Positions 5,616 through 60,280 of a DNA stretch of 64,000 bases are shown one piece after another; positions within the stretch are counted from its first letter, which is position 1, and each line of letters begins with the position of its first letter. A model generated the notes under the pieces. It had not been told where the DNA came from. It made no database searches and was given only the letters and a program-made list of their open reading frames with translations. The position numbers were made by a program, and so were the translations under genes. The stretch is from Bryobacteraceae bacterium (lineage in GTDB: Bacteria; Acidobacteriota; Terriglobia; Bryobacterales; Bryobacteraceae), in NCBI GenBank assembly GCA_036557345.1, contig DATBHS010000098.1, positions 8,605 through 72,604 of the forward strand. The letters are read 5' to 3'.

Positions 5616-5625
5616 TCGTTATGCC

Positions 5626-7269: not shown

Positions 7270-7295
7270 GGCAGTCTAATTCCTGTGCAACACTC

Positions 7296-7991
7296 TTATG
7301 GAACGACGACGTGGTCGCCCGGTTTCAGTTCTATGTTCTGATCCATATGCTTGCCGCGTACCACATCTTTATAGTTGAAGGGAATGCGCTTGTCTCCGCG
7401 CAAAATATAGATTTTTTTCTGGTTGCCAAATTCCATAACGCCCCCGGCTTTGCTGATTGCCTCGAGCACGGTAATCGGCACAACCAACGGATATTCACCA
7501 CGGCGGGCGATGTACCCATCCATGTAATATTTCTTGCTTCCTACTGCTTGAACCGTAACTGTTACCAGCGGCTTCACCACGTATTTCCCGAGCGCCTTCG
7601 TGACCGTCTGCTCCACCTGTACAGGAGTGTTTCCGCCGGCTTGCAAATCGCCAACCAGCGGGAGGGTGATCTTGCCGTCTTGGTGAACGGCCACCGGTCC
7701 GGAAAATTCCGGCTCGTTCCACACGCGAATGTGCAGAATATCAGCCGGACCGATCTTGTAAGCATTTGAATCTACAGGGGCTCCAGCCGTCGAGGGCGCC
7801 GGAACGTTCTTTCCGTCATTCGACTGATCAACCGGCGCCTGCTCGGTATTTGACTGGGGAGTTTCCTCCTGCGCCGGGGGAACAGCCGGCGGGGCGACCG
7901 GAGTCTGCTGAGCGGCCGCGCTAAAACAGACGCTAAACAGCGTCCAAAAGGCTAAGATGGCGGAACGATGTCCGGAAGTGAATGAAATCAT
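7296..7991 (-). CDS. Polysaccharide export protein (Wza/EpsE-like)
   Basis: YKIGPADILHIRVWNEPEFSGPVAVHQDGKITLPLVGDLQAGGNTPVQVEQ is the Poly_export/SLBB signature. ATG at 7991 gives a signal peptide. The ORF is open to 8054. Confidence 0.8.
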   Translation of the reverse strand: MISFTSGHRSAILAFWTLFSVCFSAAAQQTPVAPPAVPPAQEETPQSNTEQAPVDQSNDGKNVPAPSTAGAPVDSNAYKIGPADILHIRVWNEPEFSGPVAVHQDGKITLPLVGDLQAGGNTPVQVEQTVTKALGKYVVKPLVTVTVQAVGSKKYYMDGYIARRGEYPLVVPITVLEAISKAGGVMEFGNQKKIYILRGDKRIPFNYKDVVRGKHMDQNIELKPGDHVVVP

Positions 7992-8072
7992 GAGAGAGTA
8001 GAACACTGCCGGGAGGGGCCGGACAACCATGATTCTCGCATGTTGCTGCTCCAATAGAGAAATGAGGCGCGT

Positions 8073-24531: not shown

Positions 24532-24894
24532 TCAAGGCCGGTACACGGCATATGATGTGTCCGTCTCCCAAACCCGTACAAACGCGATTGATGCCGGTGC
24601 CACTCCGCTCTTCAGTTCTTCGTAAAAGAACTTTGCGATGTTTTCCGCCGAAGGATTGATCTGGTCGAACGGTTTCAGATCGTTAATGAACTGGTGATCC
24701 AGGTACTCGCTGGTGGCACGCAGCCGTTTCTTCAGCTCCGAAAAGTCAAAGAGCAGCCCGTTCGCATCCAATTCCGGGCCCGCTACTCCTATCTGCACGC
24801 GATAGTTGTGGCCATGCACATTCTCACACTTGCCGTGATAGTTTCGAAGCGCATGCCCTGCAGCGAATGTGTGCTCTACGCAAACCTCAAACAT
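24532..24894 (-). CDS. queD: 6-carboxy-5,6,7,8-tetrahydropterin synthase
   Basis: 120 aa. FAAGHALRNYHGKCENVHGHNYRV is the PTPS/QueD His-triad motif. Confidence 0.85.
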   Translation of the reverse strand: MFEVCVEHTFAAGHALRNYHGKCENVHGHNYRVQIGVAGPELDANGLLFDFSELKKRLRATSEYLDHQFINDLKPFDQINPSAENIAKFFYEELKSGVAPASIAFVRVWETDTSYAVYRP

Positions 24895-26836: not shown

Positions 26837-27074
26837 TCGAAACTGCTCACGGCGGGCCCAAGGAAACTTTGAGTGTAGTACGCGTGAGCAGTGGGGCAGA
26901 AGGTCTTGCCGTCTGCCGCAGGACTTGTTTAGTCCGGCGTGAATCGACTCAACCGGGACTGAGCCGCGACGGCAAGGGAGCGGTCTTTTCGACGCAGACC
27001 GTGAGAACCCCAAAATATGAAATTCTGGAGGGTAAGATAGAACACCGGGCAGACGACACTCAAAGGAGATCGCT

Positions 27075-27602
27075 ATGGCCACTATCCTCGTCAACGGAAT
27101 AAAACGCGAAGTTCAGGCGTCAACTGATACGCCTTTGCTCTACGTCTTGCGAAACGACCTCGAGCTTTCAGGCCCCCAGTTTGGTTGTGGGCTTGCCCAA
27201 TGCGGAGCGTGTTCCGTACTGCTCAACGGCAAGGAGATTCGATCCTGCATTACGCCGCTGTCCGCCGTCGGCGATAAGGAGGTCACGACGCTTGAGGGTC
27301 TTCCGGCGCGATGGGCCAAACAAAAGGGCCTGACTGCGGAACAGGCAGCGAAAACTCTTCATCCGGTCCAGGAGGCGTGGATCGCCGAGCAGACGCCGCA
27401 GTGCGGGTTCTGTCAGAACGGGATGATGATCAAGGCTACAGAGCTGCTGGAGCATATTCCGTCACCTGCCGTCGCGGAGATCAAGGAGGCGTTTACTTCC
27501 GGCGTCTCTCCGCACCTTTGTCGTTGTGGAACCTATACGGCGATCATCCAGGCTGTACAGCGGGCCGCCACTCAAATGGCGAAAGGGGCTAAAGTACTAT
27601 GA
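27075..27602 (+). CDS. (2Fe-2S)-binding small subunit of an aldehyde oxidase/isoquinoline oxidoreductase-type molybdoenzyme
   Basis: 175 aa. GCGLAQCGACSVLLNG and CGFCQNGMM...CRCGTY are the two [2Fe-2S] motifs. Confidence 0.85.
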   Translation: MATILVNGIKREVQASTDTPLLYVLRNDLELSGPQFGCGLAQCGACSVLLNGKEIRSCITPLSAVGDKEVTTLEGLPARWAKQKGLTAEQAAKTLHPVQEAWIAEQTPQCGFCQNGMMIKATELLEHIPSPAVAEIKEAFTSGVSPHLCRCGTYTAIIQAVQRAATQMAKGAKVL

Positions 27603-45648: not shown

Positions 45649-45744
45649 TATACCCGGGCCAGCAGGCGTCTCTGTGCTAGCCTGTTAGCGTTCTCGCTGA
45701 ACACGCTAAGCCCGCGGGTGTGCGGGTCGCTACGACCTTTCGCC

Positions 45745-47217
45745 ATGTCGCTGCAAGTTTTTTTGCAAGCTCAACTGCTTGGTACCGAGGATTTCCTGAT
45801 CTTTCAAACTTCTGGGCTCCAGGAGCAGGCGAAAGAGCTATATGGCCGCTGTGCTTGGCTCACATTGTTCTGTGAAGTACTCCCCCGCGCTCTTTTGGCA
45901 GAACTGAAGCTCTCTCGAATGCTTCTCGGCTCCAGCAGCGCCGAGCAGTTTCTCCTGGTCCTCGCCGAAGAGGAGATCCCGCACGCAAATGCCTTTCTCG
46001 AGCGCGCGGCGAAATCGATTGCGGACCTTTCGCATGGGACATTGCGTTTGGTCTGGGCGAGCACGGAAAACCTGGGCGCCTGGCCGGTCGCCCGAAAACG
46101 GTTGGATGACGCCCTGGATGCCCGAATTTCGACGCCTCTGGCCTCGGGCACTGAGCCTGCGGTTGCGTTTTTGCCGTTTCTCGCGTCCTCTCCGCCTGAC
46201 AGAGATTCTTATTTTGGGGAGTTCGCCGAGAGGTTGGTGTCTGCCCAACGCGTCGGCTGGTCAAGCGATCAGCCCGCGCGCCTGGCCTGGGACGAGGGGC
46301 AGTACACATGGGCGCTGAAGGAGCAGTCCGGTTTCGATGATGACGGCATCTTGTTTCCGCGTTGCCTGGCGCTGGACGAGTCCGGCAAGCACTTCGCTCT
46401 GCCCGAAGATCTGGCGCAGCGAGCGGACGGTGCTCCGAAGTGGGGTATTTTGCGCGGTGACGTGGATCACTTCGATCTGCAGTTGCGCAGGGCGGCGACG
46501 ATCGAGGATCATCTGCACCTTTCAGTCGCCTTTAAGGACTTCTTCGCGGGCGAACTATCGCTCCTTTTCGCCCGGCTTCCTGATCTCTGGCGTAAAGTTA
46601 GTATCCTCTACCGGGGAGGGGACGGTTTCACGGTAGTGGGGGCTTGGGACGGGCTCATCGTTCTCGCCCGCGAGTTGCAGCGGCTGTTCGACAAGTTTAT
46701 AGAGCACAATTTCGAATCGCTGCCCGGCGTGGAGGCGAAGACTTTGAGTGTGGCCCTCTCGATCGCTACCGAGCCAGATATACCGTCCGCGGCGGTGCTG
46801 CAGGAAGCGAGCGCGCTCCTGCGTGCGGCTAAGTCCAGCGAACTCGGCTCCTTTCATCTTTTCGGACGCGCACTGGAATGGAAACGCCTGGATGACGCCG
46901 AGGAGCTCAAAGACAGTCTGATGCGGCTGGTTGCCAGGTTTGGTTATCGTGCCGACTACATACACGATCTGGCCTCGGTATATCGCGAAGCGTTTTCGAC
47001 ACGCCACGGCCGGCGGGGTAAGGCGTTTCGGGTTGATAAACCGTGGCGAACACACATGCGTGTCTCCCGAGTGATTCCGCAGGCACGCAGCAAGGAATCG
47101 AGTAATCTACGGGATGCCGTCATTACGAACCTGGTCGGGAAGCGGACTGCTGGCATGAAGCTGCGCCCGTCGGCGCGGGTAGGTTTGGAGTGGGCGCGCT
47201 TGGCAGCGGGAAGCTGA
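45745..47217 (+). CDS. cas10: Minimal Cas10-like large subunit (Csm1-like; no HD domain, no Zn finger, GGDG motif)
   Basis: About 490 aa. It starts directly with the post-HD Cas10 signature (GTEDFLIF..LYGRCAWL, compare GIQdFIf..LRGRSfyL). Palm motifs are GILRGDVDHFD and ILYRGGDGFTVVGAWD, then SVALSIATEPD...LLRAAK. It is first in a csm2-csm5 operon. Confidence 0.75.
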   Translation: MSLQVFLQAQLLGTEDFLIFQTSGLQEQAKELYGRCAWLTLFCEVLPRALLAELKLSRMLLGSSSAEQFLLVLAEEEIPHANAFLERAAKSIADLSHGTLRLVWASTENLGAWPVARKRLDDALDARISTPLASGTEPAVAFLPFLASSPPDRDSYFGEFAERLVSAQRVGWSSDQPARLAWDEGQYTWALKEQSGFDDDGILFPRCLALDESGKHFALPEDLAQRADGAPKWGILRGDVDHFDLQLRRAATIEDHLHLSVAFKDFFAGELSLLFARLPDLWRKVSILYRGGDGFTVVGAWDGLIVLARELQRLFDKFIEHNFESLPGVEAKTLSVALSIATEPDIPSAAVLQEASALLRAAKSSELGSFHLFGRALEWKRLDDAEELKDSLMRLVARFGYRADYIHDLASVYREAFSTRHGRRGKAFRVDKPWRTHMRVSRVIPQARSKESSNLRDAVITNLVGKRTAGMKLRPSARVGLEWARLAAGS

Positions 47218-47278
47218 CGGCTGATATCTGACAGGTGATTGCTGAAGTCTGATTGCTCATTCGCTGAAAGGAACTTGC

Positions 47279-47809
47279 ATGGCTGAAGTAGAGGAAAAAA
47301 AGACGGAAGAACGCCGCAGTGACAGCCGGCCTCCTCGCGAGAATCGCGGCCCCGGAGGAAAGCCGAACGAGAGAGGGGAGCGTGGTTCGGGTGATCGCGG
47401 GTCCGACCGCGGCCGTGAGCGGGGCGGTCCGGGCGCAGGCCGGCCTGGCGAGCGCCGCGGCGAAGGACCGCCGGAAATCGACCTCGATAAGTTGGTCAGC
47501 GATAGTCTTTACCTGGACAACCAGGCACACGTCGTAGTCAGCCGGATGCGCGACATGGATTCGGGTACGAAGAGCCAGTTACGGCGGCTTTATAATGCCG
47601 TGCGCCGCGCAACGCGAGCTCCAGAAAATGAGCGGCAGCACGAGTTCGTCATGGTACGGGCGCGCCTTGCATACACAATCGCGCGCCATTCTCTGCGCAG
47701 CCTGGATGCACTCGAGCGATTGCTGCTGCAGGTTACCCGGAAGAATGATACCCGCGGATACGAGCGCTTCCGCGATTTATTTGAAGCAATTATTGCTTAC
47801 AACGAATAG
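47279..47809 (+). CDS. csm2: Cas11/Csm2-like small subunit with Arg/Gly-rich N-terminal extension
   Basis: 176 aa. The C-terminal approx 110 aa are helical with KSQLRRLYNAVRRA...RARLAYTIARH. Its position between cas10 and csm3 is the basis for the call. The first approx 66 aa are low complexity. Confidence 0.65.
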   Translation: MAEVEEKKTEERRSDSRPPRENRGPGGKPNERGERGSGDRGSDRGRERGGPGAGRPGERRGEGPPEIDLDKLVSDSLYLDNQAHVVVSRMRDMDSGTKSQLRRLYNAVRRATRAPENERQHEFVMVRARLAYTIARHSLRSLDALERLLLQVTRKNDTRGYERFRDLFEAIIAYNE

Positions 47810-47820
47810 GACATTGAAGC

Positions 47821-48654
47821 ATGAGTTCTCATACTCAAGAAACCGAGCTTACCTTTCTCGGCAAGCTGGTGCTCGAAGGCGAAATCCAATGCCAGACCGG
47901 TTTGCACATCGGCGCGGGTAAGGGCTCACTCGAAATCGGCGGCGCAGACAATCCGGTCGTAAAGGATGCCTTCGGGATTCCCTATATTCCGGGCAGTTCC
48001 TTGCGCGGCCGGCTTCGCTCGCTGCTCGAGCAGGCGCTCGGTCTTGCAGTTCCGAGTGAGTTGGTCTATCTTTCGAAGCGCAAGGGCCAAGAAGTTCGCA
48101 TTCACCAGAGCGATCGCCCCGATGACGAGGTCTGCATTCTCTTCGGGCGTAATCCCGGACGTGTGGAAAAGGTGAACGGCGATGCCATTGAAGCTCCGAC
48201 CGCAACACCCGCGCGTCTGACCGTGTATGATGCGCCTCTTCTTGTTGATAGCATCACAACCCAGATGCGCGAAAATCTGGACGACGAATTGACCGAGGTC
48301 AAGAGTGAAAATGCGGTCGATCGCATCACCTCGCAAGCGAATCCTCGAACCCTCGAGCGTGTGCCAGCCAGCGCACGCTTCCGGTTTCGCATGGTGCTCG
48401 ATGTGCTCTGTGCGGAAGACAAGCCGCTTCTCGCGCGCGTCGCAGAAGGTTTACGCCTGCTCGAAGATGATGCCCTCGGCGGTGGCGGCAGCCGCGGCAG
48501 CGGCCGTGTGAGTTTCACGGGCTTGACGCTCACTTGGCGCAGCAAGGATTATTACGCGAAAGGCACCCCCGAAAGCAACCTGCTCTCGGATGCCGGACTT
48601 CAGGCCTTACAGCAGCTTGCCAGTTCCGACGACTTCGCAGAGAAACTTGCCTAA
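47821..48654 (+). CDS. csm3: Type III RAMP protein Csm3 (Cas7)
   Basis: 277 aa. QTGLHIGAGKGSLEIGGADNPVVKDAFGIPYIPGSSLRGRLRSLLEQ and the G-rich loop LGGGGSRGSGRV. Confidence 0.9.
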   Translation: MSSHTQETELTFLGKLVLEGEIQCQTGLHIGAGKGSLEIGGADNPVVKDAFGIPYIPGSSLRGRLRSLLEQALGLAVPSELVYLSKRKGQEVRIHQSDRPDDEVCILFGRNPGRVEKVNGDAIEAPTATPARLTVYDAPLLVDSITTQMRENLDDELTEVKSENAVDRITSQANPRTLERVPASARFRFRMVLDVLCAEDKPLLARVAEGLRLLEDDALGGGGSRGSGRVSFTGLTLTWRSKDYYAKGTPESNLLSDAGLQALQQLASSDDFAEKLA

Positions 48655-49830
48655 ATGCAGCAGGCGCTTTTGATTCGACTCCGGCCTGCCGGTCCGTGGC
48701 GCTACGGTCCCGGGGATGGAGGCCAGGATCGTGTCGACACGCTGTACCGCAGTGATCGGCTCTACTCAGCGGTTACTGTGGCTATGCGCGACTTAGGCTT
48801 TTTGCAGGACTGGCTCAGCGCGACGGCTAAAGCGCCGCCGTCCATCGCATTCAGTTCCTTATTCCCATTTCAAGGCGACTCTTTATTTGCGATTCCGCCC
48901 GCCACTGCGTGGCCGCCTTTGCCCACGCTGGTGAGCACACCAAGCCCTGTGTTTTTAAGCAAGATCCGCTGGAAAGCTGCGCAGTTCGTTCCCGTCGCGC
49001 TGATTGACTCTTTGCTAACGGGACACTCCATTCTCGCAGATCAATGGCTTCCCGATCCCGAGAGCGGATGCTTGTTGCGGCGTGATCGCCCGAGCTCGAG
49101 CCCTTTCCGCATTACTACGCGGCGGGCTGCTGCCGTCGACCGCCTGGCCCAGAATTCGTTTGAGATCCGCTCGACCGCCTGTGTCGAGTTTGAAGCGGCG
49201 TCCGGCCTGTGGAGTGTTGTGCGTTTTTCCGATGAGTCGACTGAATCCGAGTGGACTGGCCGGATCCAGGCAGCTTTTCGCCTCCTCTCGGATACCGGGT
49301 TCGGCGGCCGGCGCACAAGCGGGTGGGGGCAGACGCAGCCGCCGGAGTTCCAACGGGCGCCATGGCCCGGTCTGCTATTCCCGAAGGTAGCCCAAAGTCT
49401 TGCGCAGCGGAACGGATTCGCGAACGGCAATCATGCCGGCTCGCAGTTTTGGCTGCTATCTCTGTACTCGCCCGCAACAAATGACGAGGTCGATTGGGCG
49501 AGCGGAGATTACCAGTTGACCCTGCGCGCAGGTGGAAACACGAAGCTGTTGCAAATGGTAGCGGAGGGCTCCGTCATGGCAGCCCGTTCGGAACCGGTGG
49601 GCACGATTATGGATATCGCGGCAGACGGGTTTTCTCATCCCGTTTATCGATCGGGAATCGCACTCGCGTTGGAACTGCCTGCTATCGAGCAACAGGGCTT
49701 GGAAGAACCGGTTGAACAGCCTTCGACCGAAGAGGCGGTCGACGCGCAGCCCTGCGAAGAGCCGCCATCATCGAGAACGGAAAGTCCGGGAACGGGAATT
49801 CCATCAGAGGAGCCAGTCGATGATTTTTAA
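48655..49830 (+). CDS. csm4: Type III RAMP protein Csm4 (Cas5)
   Basis: 391 aa. Motifs YRSDRLYSAVTVAM, SSLFPF and DTGFGGRRTSGWG. Starts at the nucleotide after the csm3 stop. Confidence 0.8.
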   Translation: MQQALLIRLRPAGPWRYGPGDGGQDRVDTLYRSDRLYSAVTVAMRDLGFLQDWLSATAKAPPSIAFSSLFPFQGDSLFAIPPATAWPPLPTLVSTPSPVFLSKIRWKAAQFVPVALIDSLLTGHSILADQWLPDPESGCLLRRDRPSSSPFRITTRRAAAVDRLAQNSFEIRSTACVEFEAASGLWSVVRFSDESTESEWTGRIQAAFRLLSDTGFGGRRTSGWGQTQPPEFQRAPWPGLLFPKVAQSLAQRNGFANGNHAGSQFWLLSLYSPATNDEVDWASGDYQLTLRAGGNTKLLQMVAEGSVMAARSEPVGTIMDIAADGFSHPVYRSGIALALELPAIEQQGLEEPVEQPSTEEAVDAQPCEEPPSSRTESPGTGIPSEEPVDDF

Positions 49831-50962
49831 ACTGACTGCGCTCACTCCGCTCCTGGTCGGCGATGGGCGTGAACTCGCACCTATCGATTACATGGTTTGG
49901 AAGGACCAGGTGAATGTCCTCGATCAGGCGCGCATCTTTAAGCTGCTGGCGCGGGGTCCGCGGCTGGACGGGTACCTGGCACAGCTACGCAAGGCCACAA
50001 AACTCGATTTCGCTTCTTGGGGCGGCTTTGCCCAAAACTTCTCGCAGCGGCGCATTCCCTTCGAGGATCCCAGCTCAACCGCAATTTGGAACGCAGCGCC
50101 TTCGGAGTCGCTCTTCATTCAGACTTTCGCGGCTAACCTGAACGGACCGTACCTGCCCGCTTCGGCTCTCAAGGGAGCGCTTCGCAGCGGGCTCATTTTC
50201 ACGCGCTGGTCCGCGGCCACGCTGGAGCGTGCGGCCTCTTCAATGGACGGCGAGCGCGTTGCCAGACGCATCGCCGAAACAGCCGAGGCGAATGCGGGTG
50301 CATCGCAGATGAAGATCGTGAGTATTGCGGACGGCCAGCCGGCGCCCGGCTCATCGTTCAAGGTCTATCTCACACGTGTGGCATCGCTCGATACACGGCA
50401 ACCTGGAAAACCGCAACTGACCTGGAAGGTGGCTGGACGCGGGAGCGTTCTTCCGCAGCGGGTCTCCGACGCAACGCCTATATTTGTGGAAATGGCAGCC
50501 CCCGGTACGACGTTTAGCGGTTCCTGGGAGGAACGGAGCTTCTTTGAAAATCAGGAGCTGTCACGCGCTCTTGGATGGCGCTCTATCCCCGAGCCGCGCA
50601 TGGTAACCGATGCTGCGAATCAATATGCGTCGGCTCAACTGAATGTGCATTCGCAGTTCGCCGATGCTTCCGGACTTGCCAGCCTTCAGAACGGCATTCA
50701 GAGATTGAAAAACGAACTGGACGCGGCACAGTCATCGCCGCTCACCTGCCTTTTGTCGCTCGGTTGGGGAGGTGGGTTCGTTTCGAAAAGCGCCTTCCTC
50801 GACACCAACCTGGACTCCTATCGTAAGCTTCTACGTTCGGTCCCCGCCTTAGGCAGGAGCATCAGGGAAAATGTACCATTTCCCAAAACCCGCCGCGTCA
50901 TTTTCACAGGCGGCCAACCCACCGCCCTTCCGGGGTGGGTCAAGGTCGAGCTTCAAAAGTAG
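49820..50962 (+). CDS. csm5: Type III RAMP protein Csm5 (Cas7 family)
   Basis: ATG at 49820 (MIFKLTALTPLLVGDG) overlaps the csm4 stop by 11 nt. Motifs PYLPASALKGALRS, LSLGWGGGF and FPKTRR. Confidence 0.85.
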   Translation: MIFKLTALTPLLVGDGRELAPIDYMVWKDQVNVLDQARIFKLLARGPRLDGYLAQLRKATKLDFASWGGFAQNFSQRRIPFEDPSSTAIWNAAPSESLFIQTFAANLNGPYLPASALKGALRSGLIFTRWSAATLERAASSMDGERVARRIAETAEANAGASQMKIVSIADGQPAPGSSFKVYLTRVASLDTRQPGKPQLTWKVAGRGSVLPQRVSDATPIFVEMAAPGTTFSGSWEERSFFENQELSRALGWRSIPEPRMVTDAANQYASAQLNVHSQFADASGLASLQNGIQRLKNELDAAQSSPLTCLLSLGWGGGFVSKSAFLDTNLDSYRKLLRSVPALGRSIRENVPFPKTRRVIFTGGQPTALPGWVKVELQK

Positions 50963-51120: not shown

Positions 51121-52026
51121 ATGCAGAGCGCGATCTACAATGCGTACTTTGGGTTTTCGGAAAACCCCTTTAATATCAGTCCCGATCCGGGATTTCTGTA
51201 TCGTAGCCCACAGCACGAAGAAGCTCTGGCCAATCTGATCTACGGTGTCCGTGGCCGCAAGGGATTCATCGTACTCAGCGGTGAAGTGGGTACCGGTAAG
51301 ACGACGATGTTGGAGTGTCTGCGGGACTATCTCGATAACCAGCGCATCGAATTTGCCTTCCTTTTCAATTCCCGGCTTACTCCCGAGCAGTTCTTCGACA
51401 TGGTCGCTTATGATTTCGATCTGCAGTGCGATCGAAAATCGAAGACGGACGTCCTGTTCGCTCTGAACGCCCTGCTTCTCCGGCAGGCGGAACGGGGCCG
51501 CACGTCCGTGCTGATTGTGGATGAGGCGCATAACCTCGACTGGGACGTCCTGGAGGAGATTCGTCTCCTCGGCAACTTGGAGAACCGCCAAGGCAAGCTC
51601 CTGCAAATTATTCTCGCCGGGCAGCCGGAACTCGACCGCAAGCTGGACGCACCGAACCTCCGGCAATTGAAGCAGCGGATTGTGCTCCGATGCACGCTGA
51701 ACCCGCTCACGCCGGAAGAGTGCGCGGCGTATGTCGAAAGCCGGCTTGCGCACGCCGGAATGACAAGACAAACGGTGTTTCCGCCGGAAGTGCTCGAGGA
51801 AGTGGCAACCCGCGCGCGGGGCATTCCCCGGCTGATCAATCTGCTCTGCGATAACCTTCTGGTCACCACCTTTGCGATGGAGCAGCGCACCGCAACTCTC
51901 GACATGCTCGATGAAGTGTGCCACGATCTCCGGCTTGAATGGCCCGGCAGCCATCGGGGCCGCGGTCGCCATCGTTACAGCGTGGATGACGAGCTTCCGA
52001 AGACTCCCTACGCTGTCGGGGACTAA
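51121..52026 (+). CDS. ExeA/AAA_22-type AAA+ ATPase (resembles PEP-CTERM-locus secretion ATPase family)
   Basis: 301 aa. FGFSENPFNISPDPGFLYRSPQHEEAL...FIVLSGEVGTGKTTML (Walker A), LIVDEAHNL (Walker B) and ILAGQPEL. Confidence 0.85.
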   Translation: MQSAIYNAYFGFSENPFNISPDPGFLYRSPQHEEALANLIYGVRGRKGFIVLSGEVGTGKTTMLECLRDYLDNQRIEFAFLFNSRLTPEQFFDMVAYDFDLQCDRKSKTDVLFALNALLLRQAERGRTSVLIVDEAHNLDWDVLEEIRLLGNLENRQGKLLQIILAGQPELDRKLDAPNLRQLKQRIVLRCTLNPLTPEECAAYVESRLAHAGMTRQTVFPPEVLEEVATRARGIPRLINLLCDNLLVTTFAMEQRTATLDMLDEVCHDLRLEWPGSHRGRGRHRYSVDDELPKTPYAVGD

Positions 52027-52040
52027 CATTCTCTTAGGGC

Positions 52041-52065
52041 GAGCGTAGCTAAACCGCTAACGCTC
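52041..52065 (+). terminator. Hairpin 15 nt after the ATPase stop
   Basis: GAGCGTAGC-TAAACC-GCT(A)ACGCTC is 9 bp with one bulge, followed by GAAGAATTTCG. The U-tract is weak. Confidence 0.35.
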
Positions 52066-52591
52066 GAAGAATTTCGCGCGCTATAGCGGCAAGAAGCCGT
52101 ATTTCGAGGTTTGACCGGATGATGCAAGTGCTCCAGAAATGCCGCCACTACTCGCGCATTGATTGAGAAGATATTTGTTCTGGATCCAGACGGAAAACAG
52201 GGATAGGAATAGAATTCCGGCTGTCTTCAGCTCACCGCCCTCAAGCTGACGAATGGGGAAGTGATCAGTCTGATTGAGGTGTGGCGGGAGCTTGCTGAGC
52301 CTGATTGCCAAAGGTCCATTCTCAGCGCACTGCTTAGTGGTATATAGAACAGGTCTTGAATCTGAGAAACCGGTCGGGGCTTCAGCAGCGCTAGCGAGAG
52401 CAGGATTCGAGCTTTCTGCGGATTCAGCTCATCGGCAGGGATTTTTCAGCGAGCGTGCCAAGGAACGGACCGGTTACTGCCGCGAGCCTCTTCATAGGTT
52501 ATGTCAGCAAACAAGCTGACAATCTCAACTGTGACGACAAACACCAGCACGGAAATGCTTTAGAGCTATTTGTCTTTGCTTGTTCACGTAA

Positions 52592-52849
52592 TGTTCAGCT
52601 CTGTTCATAGTCAGAATTCGTCAACGAAGTGTGATATCCTTCATACCGCTGGCTGTCATGGCTGCCATTGCAACGACCAAAATTGTGATGCTGCCAAACG
52701 TCGGGTTTTGGGCTGTGGCCCGTGACGCCCGCACGGATTATTTCACGCTGATGGGGCTACTGTTCGTGTTGGCGTCTGGCGCGAGGCCGCTTTCGTTCGA
52801 TTCCATCATCAACTGCACCCTGAGCACGAGCCATACACGTGGAAGATAA
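52592..52849 (+). pseudogene. C-terminal fragment of a DoxX-like membrane protein
   Basis: SFIPLAVMAAIATTKIVMLPNVGFWAVARDARTDYFTLMGLLFVLASGARPLSFD resembles only the last two helices of DoxX-family proteins. The frame is closed by TAA at 52589-52591 and no N-terminal half lies upstream. Confidence 0.45.
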
Positions 52850-53144
52850 AGACCTCTATTCAGGATTGATTCGGCTGCATGTATTGCACCATGCCTGCCA
52901 AGAAGAAGTGTTTGGACTTGACATGATCGAGGAACTTGCGCGCCATGGATATAAGTTGAGCCCTGGAACGATGTACCCCGTTTTGCATGGGCTCGAGAAG
53001 CGCGGCTACCTCAAGTCTGAGGAGTTTCGTTCCGGGAAGATCAGGCGCCGTTTGTACCGTGCCACGCCAGCGGGGCGGAAGGCGCTGAAAGCGGCCAAAC
53101 AGAAGGTCCGCGAATTGTTCGGCGAACTGATCCAAGGCAAATGA
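52839..53144 (+). CDS. PadR family transcriptional regulator
   Basis: 101 aa. LIRLHVLHHACQEEVFGLDMIEELARHGYKLSPGTMYPVLHGLEKRGYL. Confidence 0.9.
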   Translation: MEDKDLYSGLIRLHVLHHACQEEVFGLDMIEELARHGYKLSPGTMYPVLHGLEKRGYLKSEEFRSGKIRRRLYRATPAGRKALKAAKQKVRELFGELIQGK

Positions 53145-54523
53145 CGGCGAATCGGCGGAATTTGTCCCTTCTCGTCCTGTTCAGTCGCACCCTATTCGCC
53201 CAGCAATCAAATCAGACGTTGTTGAATATCGAGCAGGCGGTGAATCAGGCTGACCAGTTTCCTTCCATTGCTGCTGCGCAAGAACAAGTGAACGCTGCAG
53301 CCGCTGGCATCCGTCTCGCGCGAACCAATTACCTTCCTAGTCTGAACGCAATAGGGCAAGTGAATCGCGCGACGCGAAATAACGTGTTCGGGCTCCTTTT
53401 TCCACAGACGGTCATACCGAGCATGTCTGGCCCTGTATTAGGCACCAATGACGGAACCAGCGTGTGGGGTAGCGCTGCTGGTGTTCTTGTATCGTGGGAG
53501 CCCTTTGATTTCGGTCGCAGGCGCGCTTTAGTTCGGTCTGCTCAAGTCACTCAAGACCGGACTCAGCTTTCAGCCGAAAGAGCTCGATTTGAAATTCAGG
53601 CGAGCACTGCTGCCGCGTTCTTGACGCTTTTGGCAAGTGAAGAGACGGTGCGAGTTGCGCAAGCGTCAGTGGACAGGGCGCAGATTGTCGTCAAATCCGT
53701 TAAGGCGCTCGTTGACGCGAAGCTGCGTCCTGGAGCGGACTTGTCTCGGGCCGATATGGAACTCGATGCCGCAATGACACAGTTACTGCAGGCGCAGCAA
53801 TCAAGCGAAGTGGCGAGGACATCAGTTGCCGAGTTTACAGGAACGGACGCTAAGACGTTTGCAGCAGTTCCGGGTCACCTGCTGGAACGATTACCGGAGA
53901 CGACTGGCGAGGATGCGGCCGATCTGTCGAACAATCCTGCAGCCCGGGAACAGGCGGGTGCGATTGCGGAATCTAGATCGAAAGTAGACGTCTTGCAACA
54001 TACCTATCGTCCGACCTTCGAATTGCAGGCAGCAGGATACGGACGTGGGACCGGTGCTCTGACGAACGGGCAAACATTGGGTGGGACCGGCGGCCTTGTT
54101 CCGAATTATTTCAATGTCGGTATCGGGTTTACAGTCAACTTTCCTCTTTTGAGTTTGCCGTCGATTCACGCGCAAGAGGCACAGGCAGCAGCGGTGGAGC
54201 GGTCTGCTACCGCGACCTATAAACAAGTCTTGGCCGAACTCCAGGCCCAATCGAACGCTGCTCAAGCGACGCTGGGTCAGGCTCGTCGCATCGCGGCAGT
54301 AACACCGAAAGAAGTAGTGGACGCCCGAACTAGTTTCGCGCAGGCGAATGCTCAGTATCGGGCAGGACTCACGACCATTGTTGCCTTAGCCGAAGCGCAG
54401 AGAATGTTAGCTCAGGCAGAGATTGATGACTCGCTCGCCAAACTTGCGGTCTGGCGGGCCTGGTTGCAGCTCCAGACCGCCGAGGGAGATATCTCTTCTT
54501 TTCTGAAGGAAGCCAGCAGATAG
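53141..54523 (+). CDS. TolC-family outer membrane efflux protein
   Basis: 460 aa. Duplicated OEP repeat architecture. Overlaps the padR stop by 4 nt. Confidence 0.85.
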   Translation: MTANRRNLSLLVLFSRTLFAQQSNQTLLNIEQAVNQADQFPSIAAAQEQVNAAAAGIRLARTNYLPSLNAIGQVNRATRNNVFGLLFPQTVIPSMSGPVLGTNDGTSVWGSAAGVLVSWEPFDFGRRRALVRSAQVTQDRTQLSAERARFEIQASTAAAFLTLLASEETVRVAQASVDRAQIVVKSVKALVDAKLRPGADLSRADMELDAAMTQLLQAQQSSEVARTSVAEFTGTDAKTFAAVPGHLLERLPETTGEDAADLSNNPAAREQAGAIAESRSKVDVLQHTYRPTFELQAAGYGRGTGALTNGQTLGGTGGLVPNYFNVGIGFTVNFPLLSLPSIHAQEAQAAAVERSATATYKQVLAELQAQSNAAQATLGQARRIAAVTPKEVVDARTSFAQANAQYRAGLTTIVALAEAQRMLAQAEIDDSLAKLAVWRAWLQLQTAEGDISSFLKEASR

Positions 54524-54526
54524 AAC

Positions 54527-57500
54527 ATGCGATTGGTTTTAGCGGCACTGAGCAGACCTCTGACGGTCATTGTCTTCATGATTGCCATTGCACTCTGCGC
54601 CGTACTGGCCGTTGAGCGCATGCAGGTCGATATCTTTCCGACGGTAGGGGAGAAAGCGATCTACGTTGCCCAGCCATATAGCGGCATGGACCCCGCACAA
54701 ATGGAAGGATTCCTGAACTATTACTTCGAGTATCACTTCCTCTACATCAACGGTATTCAATACATCGAGAGCCGGAATATCCAAGGGGCTTCGCTGATGA
54801 AGCTCGTTTTTCAGCCGGACACAGATATGGCGGATGCAATGGCGCAAACGGTGGGCTATGTTAACCGCGCGCGCTCATTCATGCCGCCTGGCACAGTGCC
54901 ACCATTCATCACGCGTTTCGATGCAGGGAGTGTTCCTGTCGGACAACTCACTTTCCTGGGTCGAAATCGCAGCCAGGCTGAGATTCAGAATCTGGCGCTG
55001 AATCGCGTGCGACCGGTCTTTGCTACTTTGCCCGGAGTCTCCGCGCCCCCTCCGTTTGGTGGCAACCAGAGGTCCATCGTCGTAACGCTTGATCCGAACA
55101 AACTGAGAGAGTATGGCGTTTCGCCCGAGGAAGCAACCGCCGCCGTAAATAAGGCGAGTGTGGTTATGCCATCTGGCAATATCCGGATCGGCAATTTCAA
55201 TTTGTTCGCGACGAGTAACAGCATTCTCGGCGCTAACCTTGACGCGCTCATGGGCACTCCGGTTCGAACGATCGAAGGCCCAACTGTGTACTTGCGGGAC
55301 ATCGGAACGGTTGCTGATGCGACCGATATTCTCACCGCCTACGCGCACGTAAATGGAAAGCGCACCGTGTACATCCCGGTCACTAAGCGTGCCAGTGCGT
55401 CCACGTTGGCAGTGATTAACGAAATCAAGGCGGCGCTTCCCGATCTAAAGAAGCTGTTGCCGGAGGACATGGATATTCGCTTTGACTTTGATCAGTCGCC
55501 GTACGTTACGAATTCGTTGCGAGGCCTCCTGTTCGAGGCAGCGCTGGGAGCGGTCTTGACCGGCGTGATGGTGCTCTTGTTCTTGCGTGACTGGCGCAGC
55601 GCCATCATCGTTATCCTGAACATTCCGTTTGCCATTCTCAGTTCCGTGGTTTTGCTTTGGGCTGCGAGGCAGACGATCAACATTATGACTTTGGGAGGAC
55701 TGGCCCTAGCTGTCGGCGTCCTCGTCGACGAGTCGACCGTCGAGATTGAGAATTTACACTCTCATATGGCCTCTGGCGTTCCGCGGGCCAGAGCCGTTGT
55801 GGAAGCCACGCGGCTTACGGTTGTTCCGCGCTTCCTATCCATGCTGTGTATTCTGGCAGTCTTTCTGCCGTCGTTCTTCCTCGCTGGAGTCGGCCGTCAG
55901 CTTTTCGTGCCTCTATCACTTGCGGTGGCATTCGCGATGATCGCTTCGTTTCTGTTATCAAGCAGCCTCGTTCCCGTCTTATCCACCTGGATCATGAAAG
56001 AGAAGCGGCAAGGCGAAGAGCACGTCGGAGTGTTTGGAAGATTGCATGCAGGTTATTCGCGATATCTCAAATCCGCCTTGCGCTTTCGTTGGCCCCTGAC
56101 GCTTATCTATCTTGGCGCTTCTCTCGTGTTCCTCTGGGTATTCCTTCCCCGTATGGGAACGGAAATTTTTCCTGAAGTTGCAGCCCCGCTACTTCAAATC
56201 CGTTTGCGGGCTCCTACAGGCACTCGTATTGAGCAAACCGAACCCCGGGTTCTAAAGGCAATCGACGTGATCACGCAGACGGTCGGGCCTGATAACGTGA
56301 CGATCACAAGCGATTATGTCGGTACACAGCCGGCCAGCTATCCCGTCGATCTGATCTACCTTTTCACCGCCGGCCCCCAAGAGGCGGTAATCCGGGTCGG
56401 ATTGAAAGAAAACGTGAAGGGCGATGAAGCGCTTCGGGAACATATTCGATCGGCTCTGCGGCAAAGTGTCCCCGATCTTCAGATCTCGTTCGAAGCCGGC
56501 GACATCATCAGCCAAGTGATGAGTTTCGGGTCACCCACTCCGGTCAATATCGCCGTGCAAGGGCCGGCTCTCGAAGATGATTACACCTTCGCGAAGAAGA
56601 TCGAGAGTGAACTCGCGAAGTTGACGTTCTTGCGGGACCTTCAGTTTGCACAGGCGATGGACTACCCGACCGCGCATGCCGAGATCGATCGCGACCGCGC
56701 CGGCCAGTTTGGGTTGACTATGTCGAATATCGCGCAATCGTACGTGACTGCGACAGGGTCAAGCCGCTTTACATCGCCGAACTATTGGCGTGATCCGAGG
56801 TCAGGCAACGCGTTTCAGATCCAGGTGCAATACCCACCGGATCGGATGCAGTCATTACAGCAGATGCAGTCGATTCCACTCATGCTCCCGGGACATAGCC
56901 AGCCTTACTTGAGCGATATCGCGACGATTACTACGCCGAAAGTTCCAGGTGAGATTGATCGTTACAACGGTCAGCGAGTCATTGCACTAACGGCCAACCT
57001 GCATGAAGTCCCGCTTGGGAAAGCTCTCACTCCGATTCAGCAAGCGATTCAGCGAGCGGGCACGCCTCCGCGCGGGGTCAGCGTGCACTTGCATGGCGAG
57101 GCTCCCGGGTTGGAGGAAACGATTCGGGGTTTGCGTATAGGCCTTCTGCTTGCCGTTGTCGTTATCTTTCTTTTGTTGAGTGCCAATTTTCAATCATTTC
57201 GGCTCTCATTGGCAGTGATCCTAACAACGCCCGCCGTGCCGTGCGGAGTGTTGATTATACTGTGGCTCACCGGAACCACCCTTAACGTGCAATCTTTTAT
57301 CGGGGCCATTATGGCGATTGGAATCGCTGTCGCGAATTCGATTCTGCTGATCTCTTTCGCCGAGCGCCACCGATTAGAACAGAAGAGCTCGTCTACGGAT
57401 GCGGCGCACCACGGTGCTAGTTCTCGCCTCAGGGCAATATTGATGACCGCTGCCGCCATGATCTGCGGAATGCTTCCAATGGCGCTTGGCCTGAGCGAGG

Positions 57501-57682
57501 GTGGGAATCAAACGGCTCCGCTGAGTCGAGCGGTGATCGGGGGGTTATTGCTTTCCACATTCGCCACGCTCACCGTTCTGCCCGCAATCTATTCGATTCT
57601 TCAGCAGAAAGCCGCTGTCACTTCCGCATCCCTGAATCCAGATGATCCATCGAGCCGATACTATGGACCACAGCATTCGTAA
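54527..57682 (+). CDS. Efflux RND transporter permease subunit
   Basis: 1051 aa with 12 TM helices and two large periplasmic loops. AcrB/CzcA pattern (LGGLALAVGVLVDESTVEIEN). Confidence 0.9.
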   Translation: MRLVLAALSRPLTVIVFMIAIALCAVLAVERMQVDIFPTVGEKAIYVAQPYSGMDPAQMEGFLNYYFEYHFLYINGIQYIESRNIQGASLMKLVFQPDTDMADAMAQTVGYVNRARSFMPPGTVPPFITRFDAGSVPVGQLTFLGRNRSQAEIQNLALNRVRPVFATLPGVSAPPPFGGNQRSIVVTLDPNKLREYGVSPEEATAAVNKASVVMPSGNIRIGNFNLFATSNSILGANLDALMGTPVRTIEGPTVYLRDIGTVADATDILTAYAHVNGKRTVYIPVTKRASASTLAVINEIKAALPDLKKLLPEDMDIRFDFDQSPYVTNSLRGLLFEAALGAVLTGVMVLLFLRDWRSAIIVILNIPFAILSSVVLLWAARQTINIMTLGGLALAVGVLVDESTVEIENLHSHMASGVPRARAVVEATRLTVVPRFLSMLCILAVFLPSFFLAGVGRQLFVPLSLAVAFAMIASFLLSSSLVPVLSTWIMKEKRQGEEHVGVFGRLHAGYSRYLKSALRFRWPLTLIYLGASLVFLWVFLPRMGTEIFPEVAAPLLQIRLRAPTGTRIEQTEPRVLKAIDVITQTVGPDNVTITSDYVGTQPASYPVDLIYLFTAGPQEAVIRVGLKENVKGDEALREHIRSALRQSVPDLQISFEAGDIISQVMSFGSPTPVNIAVQGPALEDDYTFAKKIESELAKLTFLRDLQFAQAMDYPTAHAEIDRDRAGQFGLTMSNIAQSYVTATGSSRFTSPNYWRDPRSGNAFQIQVQYPPDRMQSLQQMQSIPLMLPGHSQPYLSDIATITTPKVPGEIDRYNGQRVIALTANLHEVPLGKALTPIQQAIQRAGTPPRGVSVHLHGEAPGLEETIRGLRIGLLLAVVVIFLLLSANFQSFRLSLAVILTTPAVPCGVLIILWLTGTTLNVQSFIGAIMAIGIAVANSILLISFAERHRLEQKSSSTDAAHHGASSRLRAILMTAAAMICGMLPMALGLSEGGNQTAPLSRAVIGGLLLSTFATLTVLPAIYSILQQKAAVTSASLNPDDPSSRYYGPQHS

Positions 57683-58763
57683 TCTGATTTCTGTTTTCGT
57701 CTTGCTGGTCAGTGCGCAAGCATTTGAGTCAGCGCAGACAATAAAACTCGCAAGAGTGGCATCGAAGCGGATTGTGCGCACGACGGAGCTGCGCGGTGAG
57801 TTCTATCCATTTCTCAGCGTCGAGTTGCATGCGAAGGTATCCGGATATGTCGATAAAGTACTGGTCGATCGCGGAACCGTAGTCAGGCAAGGAGAGTTGG
57901 TAGTTCAACTCAGCGCTCCAGAACTCGAAGCCCATATCGTGCAGGCGCGGGCACAGGTAACTTCGGCCAGGTCGGATGAAACGCAGGCCGAAGCACAGTT
58001 GTCTGCATCGCAAAGCAATTACGAGAAGCTCCAGGAAGCCGCAAAGACACCCGGTGCCGTTGCTGAAAACGATCTCATCCAGGCGAAACAGCAGACAGAT
58101 GCTGCGCAAGCGGTCGTCCGATCTCGCCAAAAAACGGTCGAATCACTCAAGGCCAGCTTAAAATCTCAACAGGATCTGGCCGCCTACCTTCGTGTAACCG
58201 CGCCCTTCGATGGGGTGATCACCACGCGCTACGTCCATCCGGGAGCGCTCGTAGGACCGGGTTCAGACGTCCCGCTCTTGCAACTTGATCAAATCTCGCA
58301 TTTGCGACTCGCCGTTGCGGTACCTGAGGCAGACGTCGCCGGTATCGAAAAGGGGTTGACAGTGGACTTCAAGGTGCCGGCACACCCGGAGCGCGCCTTT
58401 TCCGGTGTGATCGCAAGGCCAGCGCGTGCGCTGGACATGAAGACGCGTACCATGCCGGTGGAACTCGACGTTCGCAATCAGGATGGGCTGCTTGCTCCTG
58501 GTATGTATCCATCAGTGCTGTGGCCCGTCCAGAGTTCCCGAGCTGCTTTACTCGTACCGCCAACTAGTATTGTGACCACCACGGAGCGGGTCTTCGTCAT
58601 CCGCGACAACAATGGTCGTGCTCAGTGGGTAAACGTTCGTAAAGGACCGGCGGTCGGTAATTTCGTCGAAGTTCAGGGCGATCTGAAACCCGGCGATGAA
58701 ATAGTCGAGCATGCAACCGACGAGATCCGTGAGGGCGCCGTACTTAAAAGCACGAAGTCATAG
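57663..58763 (+). CDS. Efflux RND periplasmic adaptor (MFP) subunit
   Basis: ATG at 57663 overlaps the RND gene end. Has lipoyl/hairpin/beta-barrel motifs (VSGYVDKVLVDRGTVVRQGELVVQLSAPEL ... VTAPFDGVITTRYVHPGALV). Confidence 0.85.
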   Translation: MDHSIRNLISVFVLLVSAQAFESAQTIKLARVASKRIVRTTELRGEFYPFLSVELHAKVSGYVDKVLVDRGTVVRQGELVVQLSAPELEAHIVQARAQVTSARSDETQAEAQLSASQSNYEKLQEAAKTPGAVAENDLIQAKQQTDAAQAVVRSRQKTVESLKASLKSQQDLAAYLRVTAPFDGVITTRYVHPGALVGPGSDVPLLQLDQISHLRLAVAVPEADVAGIEKGLTVDFKVPAHPERAFSGVIARPARALDMKTRTMPVELDVRNQDGLLAPGMYPSVLWPVQSSRAALLVPPTSIVTTTERVFVIRDNNGRAQWVNVRKGPAVGNFVEVQGDLKPGDEIVEHATDEIREGAVLKSTKS

Positions 58764-58771
58764 GCGACAAT

Positions 58772-60280
58772 ATGCGGACATCCACAGACCTATCAAAACG
58801 CACTTTCCTGAAAACAATGGTGGGCGGCGCTGCCGGGCTACTTGCAGGAATTCCAACCAGCCCCGCGCAAATGTTGTCGATGAAATCCGCCTCAGAAGGT
58901 GAGCAGAACAGCGGGACGGCCAACTATACACTACACATTGCTGCTACACCGATCGAGATTGCTCCGAAGAAGATCATTTCAGCGGTAACGTACAACGGAC
59001 AGTTTCCGGGTCCCTTGCTGCGCTTTAAAGAAGATCAGCAAGTGACAATCGACGTTTTCAATGGCACCGACACTCCCGAGCAACTACACTGGCACGGGCA
59101 GTTAGTGCCAACTTCTGTGGACGGCGCTGCCGAAGAAGGTACGCCATTCATTCCCGCTCACGGAAAGCGACGCCTGGTTTTTACGCCTCGTCCAGCGGGT
59201 TTCCGCTGCTATCACACACACGACCGTGCTGGGGCAAACCTAGCGGCGGGGCAATACAGCGGACAAGTAGGGCCAGTGTATATAGAGCCGAAGCACGAGC
59301 CCGGGAGGTACGACCGCGAAGTCTTCCTTGTTCTGAAAGAATTTGAGCCCTCCTTCAGCCAGGGTGGCGATATGGCGCAGGATTTCCTGACACCTGCGAC
59401 GACGATCCTGGAACTGAAGGACCAGGGAGAGGCTGCTATGAAGGCATCGCTCGCAAAAGGCACGCCGCATGGCTATGAGGTTGGATACGACTCCTTTACA
59501 ATCAACGGCCGCAAACTGCACCACGGTCAACCGATAAAAGTGAAGCAGGGCGAGCGTGTGCTCTTCCACATCCTGAACGGAAGCGCGACCGAGATCCGAA
59601 GCCTTGGCTTGCCGGGACATACGTTCGAAATAGTCAGCATGGACGGCAATCCTGTTCCAACTGCGAAGCGAGTTCCTGTCTTATGGATTGGCACGGCAGA
59701 ACGTATTTCGGCGATCGTCGAGATGAACCATCCCGGTGTCTGGATTATGGGCGACATGGCCGACGACGACCGCAATCACGGAATGGGCATTGTTGTGGAG
59801 TATGCTCATCGCGCTGGCAAGCCAGTATGGCTTCCACCGCCGCACGGGAAGTGGAATTACACGTGGTTCGGTTCTGCGAAGCCTGCACAAGAGCCCGATG
59901 AAACCTTCGACATGACGTTCACCAAGGTCAATGCGGCCGATCAGGGGTTTAACCGATGGGAAATCAACGGTGTTGCGTATCCGAATACGATGGCTCCGGT
60001 TGCCGCAACTTTCCAAGTCCGAGAAGGCAAACGGTACCGACTACGCATGCGTAACGCGAGCGACGACATCCACCCTATCCATCTACACCGACACGTCTTC
60101 GAACTGACCAGAGTCGCTGGCCAGGCCACCTCCGGGATCATGAAGGATGTTGTGATGGTGGGCGGGTATCAGTCGGTCGAGGTTGATTTCGTTGCCAACA
60201 ACCCAGGCCTCACTCTGTTTCACTGCCATCAGCAGTTGCATATGGACTACGGCTTCATGACACTGTTCAACTATATGTAA
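58772..60280 (+). CDS. Multicopper oxidase (Tat-exported)
   Basis: 502 aa. Tat-like KRTFLKTMVGGAAGLLAG. Copper motifs HWHG, CYHTHD, HPIHLHRH and HCHQQLHMDYGFM. Confidence 0.85.
   Translation: MRTSTDLSKRTFLKTMVGGAAGLLAGIPTSPAQMLSMKSASEGEQNSGTANYTLHIAATPIEIAPKKIISAVTYNGQFPGPLLRFKEDQQVTIDVFNGTDTPEQLHWHGQLVPTSVDGAAEEGTPFIPAHGKRRLVFTPRPAGFRCYHTHDRAGANLAAGQYSGQVGPVYIEPKHEPGRYDREVFLVLKEFEPSFSQGGDMAQDFLTPATTILELKDQGEAAMKASLAKGTPHGYEVGYDSFTINGRKLHHGQPIKVKQGERVLFHILNGSATEIRSLGLPGHTFEIVSMDGNPVPTAKRVPVLWIGTAERISAIVEMNHPGVWIMGDMADDDRNHGMGIVVEYAHRAGKPVWLPPPHGKWNYTWFGSAKPAQEPDETFDMTFTKVNAADQGFNRWEINGVAYPNTMAPVAATFQVREGKRYRLRMRNASDDIHPIHLHRHVFELTRVAGQATSGIMKDVVMVGGYQSVEVDFVANNPGLTLFHCHQQLHMDYGFMTLFNYM

Follow-up and report, generated by a model that had tools for sequence, protein, structure and literature searches.

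The window analysed here is a 64,000-nucleotide (nt) stretch of a Bryobacteraceae bacterium (Acidobacteriota; contig DATBHS010000098.1), which carries at positions 45745–50962, on the forward strand, five tightly packed genes for a type III CRISPR effector complex, with gaps of 61, 11, 0 and -11 nt between them. An initial annotation of the same DNA had described a five-gene Csm operon with these spacings; open reading frame (ORF) calls and curated profiles reproduced it, and every motif quoted there for Csm3, Csm4 and Csm5 was found in the translations. In order, the genes encode a Cas10/Csm1-like large subunit with Palm1, Palm2 and a C-terminal helical domain (45745–47217; 490 amino acids, aa), the Cas11 small subunit Csm2 (47279–47809; 176 aa), the Cas7 backbone RNase Csm3 (47821–48654; 277 aa), the Cas5 protein Csm4 (48655–49830; 391 aa) and the Cas7-like cap subunit Csm5 (49820–50962; 380 aa), whose gene overlaps csm4 by 11 nt. 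A sixth gene on the same strand (51121–52026) encodes a 301-aa AAA+ ATPase of the ExeA family (AAA_22; PF13401, E = 2.4e-27). The cas10 ORF opens at a GTG codon at 45718; we took the ATG at 45745 as the start, since all homologues begin MSLQVF. Homologues of Csm5 begin MIFKLTAL. For comparison, 89 related loci (labelled L001–L089) were gathered from genomes and metagenomes, and the six-gene order recurs in loci of both kinds.

Csm2 scored above the cut-offs of PF03750 and TIGR01870 (41 bits against the latter; cut-off 30.6), Csm3 reached 199 bits against TIGR02582 (cut-off 90), Csm4 107.5 bits against TIGR01903 (cut-off 55), together with a match to the Pfam family Csm4_C, and Csm5 64 bits against TIGR01899 (cut-off 38), with additional matches to the PADLOC Csm5 models. 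All four exceed the NCBIfam equivalog cut-offs for type III-A, and the operon is a full set of Csm subunits. The putative catalytic aspartate of Csm3, Asp43, sits in the motif EIGGADNPV, which aligns to EIGGIDNPV in T. onnurineus Csm3 and to EIGGTDNPV in the structure 4qts; it is invariant, being found in 87 of 87 related sequences. Csm2 consists of a near-invariant C-terminal core preceded by an N-terminal tail of ~66 aa rich in arginine, glycine, glutamate and proline (47279–47476). Such a tail, 50–90 aa long, disordered and linked to the core through a conserved EGPPEIDLDK, was found in all 35 family ORFs examined, and the 176-aa Csm2 of the window compares with one of 126 aa in a Rhodothermus plasmid locus. 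The window Csm4 ends in an acidic tail (49690–49830) with the tip DDF, and a comparison of tails across loci found a long acidic tail with a DDEF-like tip in many family members. The opposite charges of the Csm2 and Csm4 tails suggest a contact within the complex or with a partner.

Cas10 matched the Pfam family PF22335 (Cas10-Cmr2_palm2) with 57.9 bits (cut-off 27). Against the III-A Csm1 equivalog TIGR02578 it scored 123.7 bits, under the cut-off of 170, and only positions 492–730 of the 753 in that model were matched. The protein is 490 aa long, compared with ~750 aa for Csm1, and its homologues span only 488–493 aa. Positions 9–87 of the family profile align to Csm1 residues ~252–351, with the alignment beginning at ~252–273, the start of Palm1; the GIQDFI region of Csm1 is the counterpart of the Palm1 start in the window protein. 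Because the profile alignment starts at ~252, the ~250 N-terminal residues of canonical Csm1, which make up the HD domain, are missing, and a Pfam search of the window ORFs found no separate HD gene in the locus. An AlphaFold2 model of Cas10 (predicted local distance difference test score, pLDDT, 85; predicted template modelling score 0.85) returned type III-A Csm1 structures of 630–780 aa as its top Foldseek matches, with template modelling (TM) scores of 0.70–0.75 when normalised to the query and ~0.5 when normalised to the target. As modelled, the window Cas10 is Csm1 without its HD domain, with a predicted fold that matches from Palm1 to the C-terminus.

The cyclase motif of the window Cas10 is GGDG (residues 291–294), in place of GGDD, and its DxD motif is GDVD (residues 238–241). 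A census of 184 full-length family members, which are not phylogenetically independent of one another, counted 97 with GGDDF, 27 with GGEDF, 17 with GGDGF, 15 with GIEGF, eight with GGDEF and five with GGDNF; GVAGF, SNDGF and GASDF are among the rarer forms. In the GIEGF members VAVDA replaces GDVDH, so that the first acidic residue of DxD is lost too. These counts show that the ancestor of the family carried GGDD and that in several lineages, including that of the window, the whole module has stayed under selection after damage to the site. Mutation of GGDD to GGAA in Cas10 abolishes the synthesis of cyclic oligoadenylates (cOA), and by analogy the cyclase activity of the window protein is probably impaired.

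The ATPase encoded downstream of csm5 has intact Walker A (GEVGTGKT) and Walker B (LIVDEAH) motifs. It aligned over the full length of TIGR03015, the model of the XrtA/PEP-CTERM-associated ATPase, with 286.2 bits, under the cut-off of 324.5; to judge by this score it is a close relative of that family and not a certified member. It is entered in databases under 'ExeA family' or 'general secretion pathway protein A' (GspA), but unlike ExeA/GspA the window protein is the 301-aa ATPase part alone, lacking the transmembrane and periplasmic peptidoglycan-binding parts and carrying no further Pfam domain. Among the 32 related loci with enough sequence, 21 have the gene downstream of csm5 on the same strand (at a distance of 43–500 nt in 20 loci and of 2.9 kb in the remaining one), and these include the most divergent branches, whose Cas10 is only 39–46% identical to that of the window. 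Across loci the ATPase is 67–92% identical, with a ratio of nonsynonymous to synonymous substitution rates (dN/dS) of ~0.03. A profile search based on its sequence found no relative in the PDB, and its AlphaFold2 model was poor (pLDDT 54). At 4446–8054 on the reverse strand, the window also contains genes for Wza-like polysaccharide export, for a chain-length determinant (Wzz/GNVR) and for a protein resembling tyrosine kinases (AAA_31). Genes of this type accompany PEP-CTERM systems. The resemblance of the ATPase to proteins of PEP-CTERM/exopolysaccharide loci, together with the presence of such genes in the window, is only a lead.

A search with Cas10, in which 8,000 candidates were scored, yielded 2,266 clusters at the 90% identity level. 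The top 120 clusters are 64–100% identical and constant in length, and the named sources are all Acidobacteriota (Bryobacteraceae, Acidobacteriaceae, and metagenome-assembled genomes, MAGs, labelled Terriglobia or Acidobacteriota). Clustering at 50% left ~20 full-length Cas10 representatives. Beyond these, the nearest relatives are canonical Cas10s, 737–800 aa long, that match over Palm2 and D4 only, at E values of ~1e-13 to 1e-15, a gap which sets the family well apart. This large, lineage-specific family, the HD-less Cas10 and the conserved ATPase partner are points beyond those made in the initial annotation.

Across the related loci, identity to the window is 75–92% for Csm3 and 85–99% for the Csm2 core, 39–80% for Cas10, 40–76% for Csm4 and 47–83% for Csm5; every locus retains csm4 and csm5. 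Csm3 has changed less than the products of the neighbouring thiolase and fadB genes: its identities to L001, L012 and L089 are 92, 88 and ~86%, those of the adjacent thiolase 84, 78 and 74%. Between the window and L002, the only genome pair with the upstream block of genes in common, dN was 0.067 for csm3, 0.059 for atpB and 0.061 for dapA, with dN/dS of 0.03–0.05; for all six module genes dN/dS was 0.03–0.15, with saturated synonymous sites. Strong purifying selection acts on each of the six genes, which evolve at rates comparable to those of core metabolic genes. These values bear on whether the locus might be a decaying, non-functional III-A remnant left after the loss of its array and accessory genes. 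The missing HD domain, array, cas6, adaptation genes and CARF effector, and the GGDG motif, could be read in that way, but selection of this strength, reading frames intact in dozens of loci and a Cas10 of constant length throughout the family make such decay extremely improbable. The sole disrupted module gene among the loci is cas10 of L007, split into two tblastn segments (L007:10318–10320) by either a frameshift or a sequencing error.

The chromosomal surroundings are similarly stable. Upstream of the module the window has lpxD, a flavoprotein gene, atpI, atpB and a dihydrodipicolinate synthase (DHDPS) gene, which bears out the housekeeping upstream flank described earlier, with the start of an atp operon and the DHDPS gene confirmed. 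The upstream block of L002, lpxD-flavoprotein-atpZ-atpI-atpB-dapA, is common to the window. In L001, L012 and L089 the ATPase gene is followed by thiolase (-) and fadB (+), the same pair that stands at 60.4–63.8 kb in the window. Two closed contigs of 5.6 and 6.9 Mb place the module among tRNA synthetase and metabolic genes. No family member was found in INPHARED or PLSDB, and none in IMG/VR with peptide patterns that match at least 549 metagenome stretches; tblastn gave no phage match, and the best Csm3 on any of 72,556 plasmids is 43% identical. This pattern suggests a vertically inherited chromosomal gene set.

Between the ATPase and thiolase/fadB, the window has at 52839–60280 (+) genes for a PadR regulator, a TolC-like outer membrane efflux protein (OEP), an AcrB-type RND pump, an HlyD-type fusion protein and a multicopper oxidase. 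This block (52.8–60.3 kb) is apparently an inserted metal/efflux cluster. The downstream flank had been described as an AAA+ ATPase followed by decayed DNA; the ATPase stands, as an AAA_22 protein, but the intervening 52027–52838 could not be shown to be a pseudogene. These ~810 nt hold no recognisable gene, only ORFs of 81 and 72 aa without a family match; a 150-nt piece is 72% identical to L001, and no similarity was detected to the genes that lie downstream of the ATPase in relatives. In 15 loci a gene for a 1,129-aa signal-peptide protein with no Pfam domain and one for a 341-aa VWA protein stand directly upstream of cas10 on the same strand. The pair, located at L012:2615–7039 and also in L019, L022, L028, L038, L039, L046, L054–56, L061, L077–80 and L089, spans close and distant branches, with identities that fall in step with those of the module, and is found nowhere in the window. 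Further from the module, at 24887–27094 (-), lies a gene for a 735-aa DinG/XPD-type helicase (DEAD and Helicase_C_2), probably a housekeeping DinG; DinG is an accessory of type IV-A systems.

The initial annotation had reported no array, cas6, cas1/cas2 or cOA-responsive effector in the 64 kb, and repeat scans, Rfam and Pfam were all negative. Direct and inverted repeat scans at low thresholds, Tandem Repeats Finder and Rfam searches, at the gathering threshold and at E ≤ 5, detected nothing CRISPR-like, not even a mini-array or a solitary repeat close to the operon; the window holds no CRISPR array, Rfam family or tRNA. Among the Pfam matches of every large ORF in the 64 kb there was no Cas6, Cas1, Cas2, CARF, SAVED or transposase, and CARF, SAVED and HEPN families were absent from the window ORFs and from the annotated neighbourhoods of L088 and L089. 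A k-mer chain scan of 789 kb, covering the window and related loci, found genuine arrays only in L054 and L056, which represent one hot-spring lineage; among ~35 long related loci, an array within 10 kb is confined to this one lineage. An apparent array in L080 (L080:17426–17595) was rejected as a perfect 60-nt coding tandem repeat, at a contig end, that encodes IGPYPPPDPDSGSFA units. As sites for a guide in cis, the spacer between csm5 and the ATPase gene was discarded because it shrinks to 43 nt in some loci, and the region after the ATPase gene because it is not conserved across loci. The cas10–csm2 spacer of the window contains an imperfect 14-nt tandem repeat, GCTGACAGCTGATT, in 3.2 copies (47213–47257), which is weakly conserved in close relatives.

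A conserved element precedes cas10 at 45673–45744 (+). It opens with an extended -10-like TGTGCTAGCCT (45673–45683); next comes a ~60-nt leader containing two hairpins, TTAGCGT/ACGCTAA at 45685–45709 and GCCCGC-GGGTGT-GCGGGT at 45710–45727; a conserved CGCTACGACC just ahead of the cas10 start can pair with the AUGUCG start region. The element is 78–93% identical among loci with differing upstream genes, and in an alignment of 24 loci the pairing of the second hairpin is kept through a few two-sided, compensatory changes. The element is common to the closer loci and absent from more distant ones. We infer that the element acts as a promoter and 5' leader, and it may serve in autoregulation or in the control of translation. 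With ...CGCTACGAC after it, the leader hairpin bears a loose resemblance to a repeat hairpin with an 8-nt tag; we do not propose it as a guide, since there is no second copy in the window and it is missing in distant relatives.

The initial annotation had suggested either an effector acting in trans or a type III derivative, reduced or exapted, that fits none of the classic subtypes, and this is supported by the lack of an array, cas6 and cas1/cas2 in the window and by a Cas10 that falls outside clean III-A. The reduced or exapted option is favoured over the trans-acting one because of the housekeeping-level conservation, the synteny, the array-less loci and the absence from mobile-element collections. 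We read the module as a lineage-specific, vertically inherited and reduced III-A (Csm) derivative, lodged in the chromosome of Terriglobia-type Acidobacteriota and serving a fixed host function, an interpretation that in our judgement stands evenly balanced between right and wrong. A constant host function is favoured because the module is slowly evolving, syntenic, lineage-wide and absent from mobile elements; spacer-driven adaptive immunity is less likely. The five proteins would assemble into a Csm-like ribonucleoprotein particle in which Cas10 and Csm4 form the foot, Csm3 the backbone, Csm2 a filament and Csm5 the cap. This particle may carry RNA that is made elsewhere and matured by host RNases, or borrowed from another locus, and would pair with complementary RNA and cleave it through Csm3. 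Cas10 would be mainly structural, with no DNase and with a cOA output that is doubtful or dispensable, and the ATPase would be a working partner, as loader, remodeller or downstream effector. The constant job in the host could be the RNA-guided control or surveillance of particular transcripts, or an innate defence of fixed specificity. More tentatively, a complete type III effector may have been domesticated in a major class of soil bacteria as a chromosomal, vertically inherited ribonucleoprotein that cleaves RNA, has a fixed guide or target outside CRISPR and works with an ExeA-type ATPase; its role would be housekeeping or regulatory and not immune, under constraint like that of core genes across deep divergences.

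Several observations weigh against this interpretation. Two acidic residues still stand at the GGDD position (GGDD or GGED) in ~70% of the sampled family members, so cyclase signalling may survive in many lineages, with another sensor. The ATPase gene does not appear within the available sequence of 11 of the 32 loci, which makes its linkage frequent and not obligatory in cis. Because the taxon labels of the MAGs are coarse, vertical inheritance is read from co-divergence with neighbouring genes and not from a species tree. No guide RNA was found and no intergenic segment is shared by all members of the family, so the RNA-guided part of the proposal is drawn solely from homology. Arrays do occur at L056:39–1020 and L054:34–1008, where 13–14 copies of the 37-nt repeat GTCGCGCGCGACACCCCGAAGAGAAGGGGACTGAAAC lie ~7 kb upstream of cas10; the repeat is type III-style and ends in ACTGAAAC, and non-cas genes separate the array from cas10. 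Finally, array-less type III loci that use CRISPR RNAs (crRNAs) in trans are common (PMC12669027).

These points bear most directly on the possibility that the module is an ordinary defence effector, using crRNAs supplied in trans from distant arrays, with host RNases or another system's Cas6 doing the processing. Interference would then proceed by RNA cleavage through Csm3, with a signal to an unlinked effector where GGDD is intact. Most III-B, III-C, III-E and III-F loci are array-less, and III-G has been proposed to recruit crRNAs in trans (PMC12669027); the 14-repeat array 7 kb from cas10 in L054/L056, the retained catalytic Asp of Csm3 and the presence of GGDD or GGED in most family members fit the same explanation. 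However, conservation at housekeeping level in a stable chromosomal position is unusual for defence islands, the family is absent from the phage, plasmid and viral collections, and no cas6, cas1/2, CARF or SAVED gene was found in the window or annotated neighbourhoods. Among loci that extend over the matching upstream region, the one closest to L056 is L061, and it carries no array in that region; the VAVDA/GIEGF lineage still keeps Cas10 with both cyclase motifs destroyed. On this balance we regard the use of trans crRNAs for ordinary defence as possible but unlikely.

The lack of a conserved guide locus in cis also leaves room for a particle that needs no guide at all and coats or holds heterogeneous or structured cellular RNAs, using the arginine/glycine-rich (RG-rich) Csm2 tail and acting together with the ATPase as an RNA chaperone, storage or decay factor. 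Such a tail is present in every member, conservation is much higher in Csm2 and Csm3, whose filaments contact the RNA, than in the Cas10–Csm4 foot, which reads the tag of the crRNA, and type IV-B, for which RNA binding of this kind is reported, offers a precedent (PMC8730458). Against this, Csm4 and Csm5, which cap defined crRNA ends in known complexes, are kept in all loci under purifying selection, and the invariant Asp of Csm3 points to site-specific cleavage of a paired target. We therefore consider guide-independent RNA binding improbable.

Compared with the type III-A Csm systems of S. thermophilus, S. epidermidis and T. onnurineus, the reduced III-A derivative proposed here has the same cas10-csm2-csm3-csm4-csm5 order, the Csm1 fold and the Csm3 Asp. 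It differs from them in a Cas10 that lacks the HD domain, carries GGDG and scores below the Csm1 cut-off, in the lack of cas6, an array, cas1/2 and a Csm6/CARF gene, and in the addition of the RG-rich Csm2 tail, a fixed chromosomal site and the ExeA-type ATPase partner. The Rhodothermus plasmid Csm locus has the usual ring nuclease and CARF genes, both of which are lacking in the window module, and within the family Csm3 is at least 75% identical, compared with at most 43% to any plasmid-borne Csm3.

Reductive evolution has also been described for types III-G and III-H as well as III-I, in which the cyclase is degraded, cOA-sensing genes are lost and adaptation genes are absent, III-G being array-less; in III-G, as in III-H, the HD domain is apparently active, DNA cutting is predicted and the catalytic Asp of Cas7 is lost (PMC12669027). 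The window module reverses the III-G/III-H pattern, since its HD domain is gone and its Csm3 Asp is invariant. It has no Csx26, the mark of III-G. Whereas in III-H Cas11 replaces the C-terminus of Cas10, csm2 is a separate gene here, and the Cas7 and Cas5 genes are likewise separate, unlike the Cas7-11i fusion of III-I. III-A2 lacks Cas11, which the window module has.

Closest to it in concept are array-less, lineage-restricted CRISPR derivatives classed as exaptations, namely type IV-B (with CysH-like), a Streptomyces I-E derivative with a STAND nucleoside triphosphatase (NTPase) and HRAMP (PMC8730458). Like the window module, they have no array or adaptation genes, are confined to one organism group and are partnered by a non-Cas NTPase or enzyme. 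Their ancestors belong to type I or type IV or are unclear, whereas the window module is III-A-like with all five subunits, including Cas10; type IV-B is moreover plasmid-borne, in contrast to the chromosomal, syntenic position found here. CRISPR-associated transposons (CASTs) also combine a nuclease-poor class 1 effector with an AAA+ ATPase of the AAA_22 kind (TnsC/TniB). A CAST-like reading was rejected: no TnsB/TniA transposase or TniQ is present in the window or in annotated relatives, the locus is syntenic, and the ATPase is nearer to ExeA/PEP-CTERM proteins than to TniB. In relatives, the only transposase gene is a DDE_3 one in L089, which stands as an isolated insertion.

The Joint Genome Institute labels family proteins 'Csm1', and the module genes are thus already annotated, yet apparently undiscussed in the literature. 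In a search of partial coverage we found no report of an acidobacterial Csm module, of an ExeA–CRISPR link or of a matching subtype. Surveys of type III accessory genes name several ATPases, and the ExeA-type AAA_22 is not among them.

Exapted CRISPR effectors have so far been found mostly on mobile elements (type IV, CASTs) or in a few poorly understood lineage-specific modules. If the interpretation proposed here is true, the acidobacterial module would be a clear case of an RNA-guided immune effector that has become a stable cellular component, with conservation like that of ATP synthase, in abundant soil bacteria. Even if it uses trans crRNAs, such conservation is unusual for a defence system and needs explanation. 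The module offers a tractable system in which to study the RNA content of a type III complex without an array and the role of an AAA_22 ATPase in it, and a compact, RNA-only type III effector may be of technical use. It also has a bearing on the behaviour of a Cas10 whose two enzymatic outputs have both been lost or become optional.

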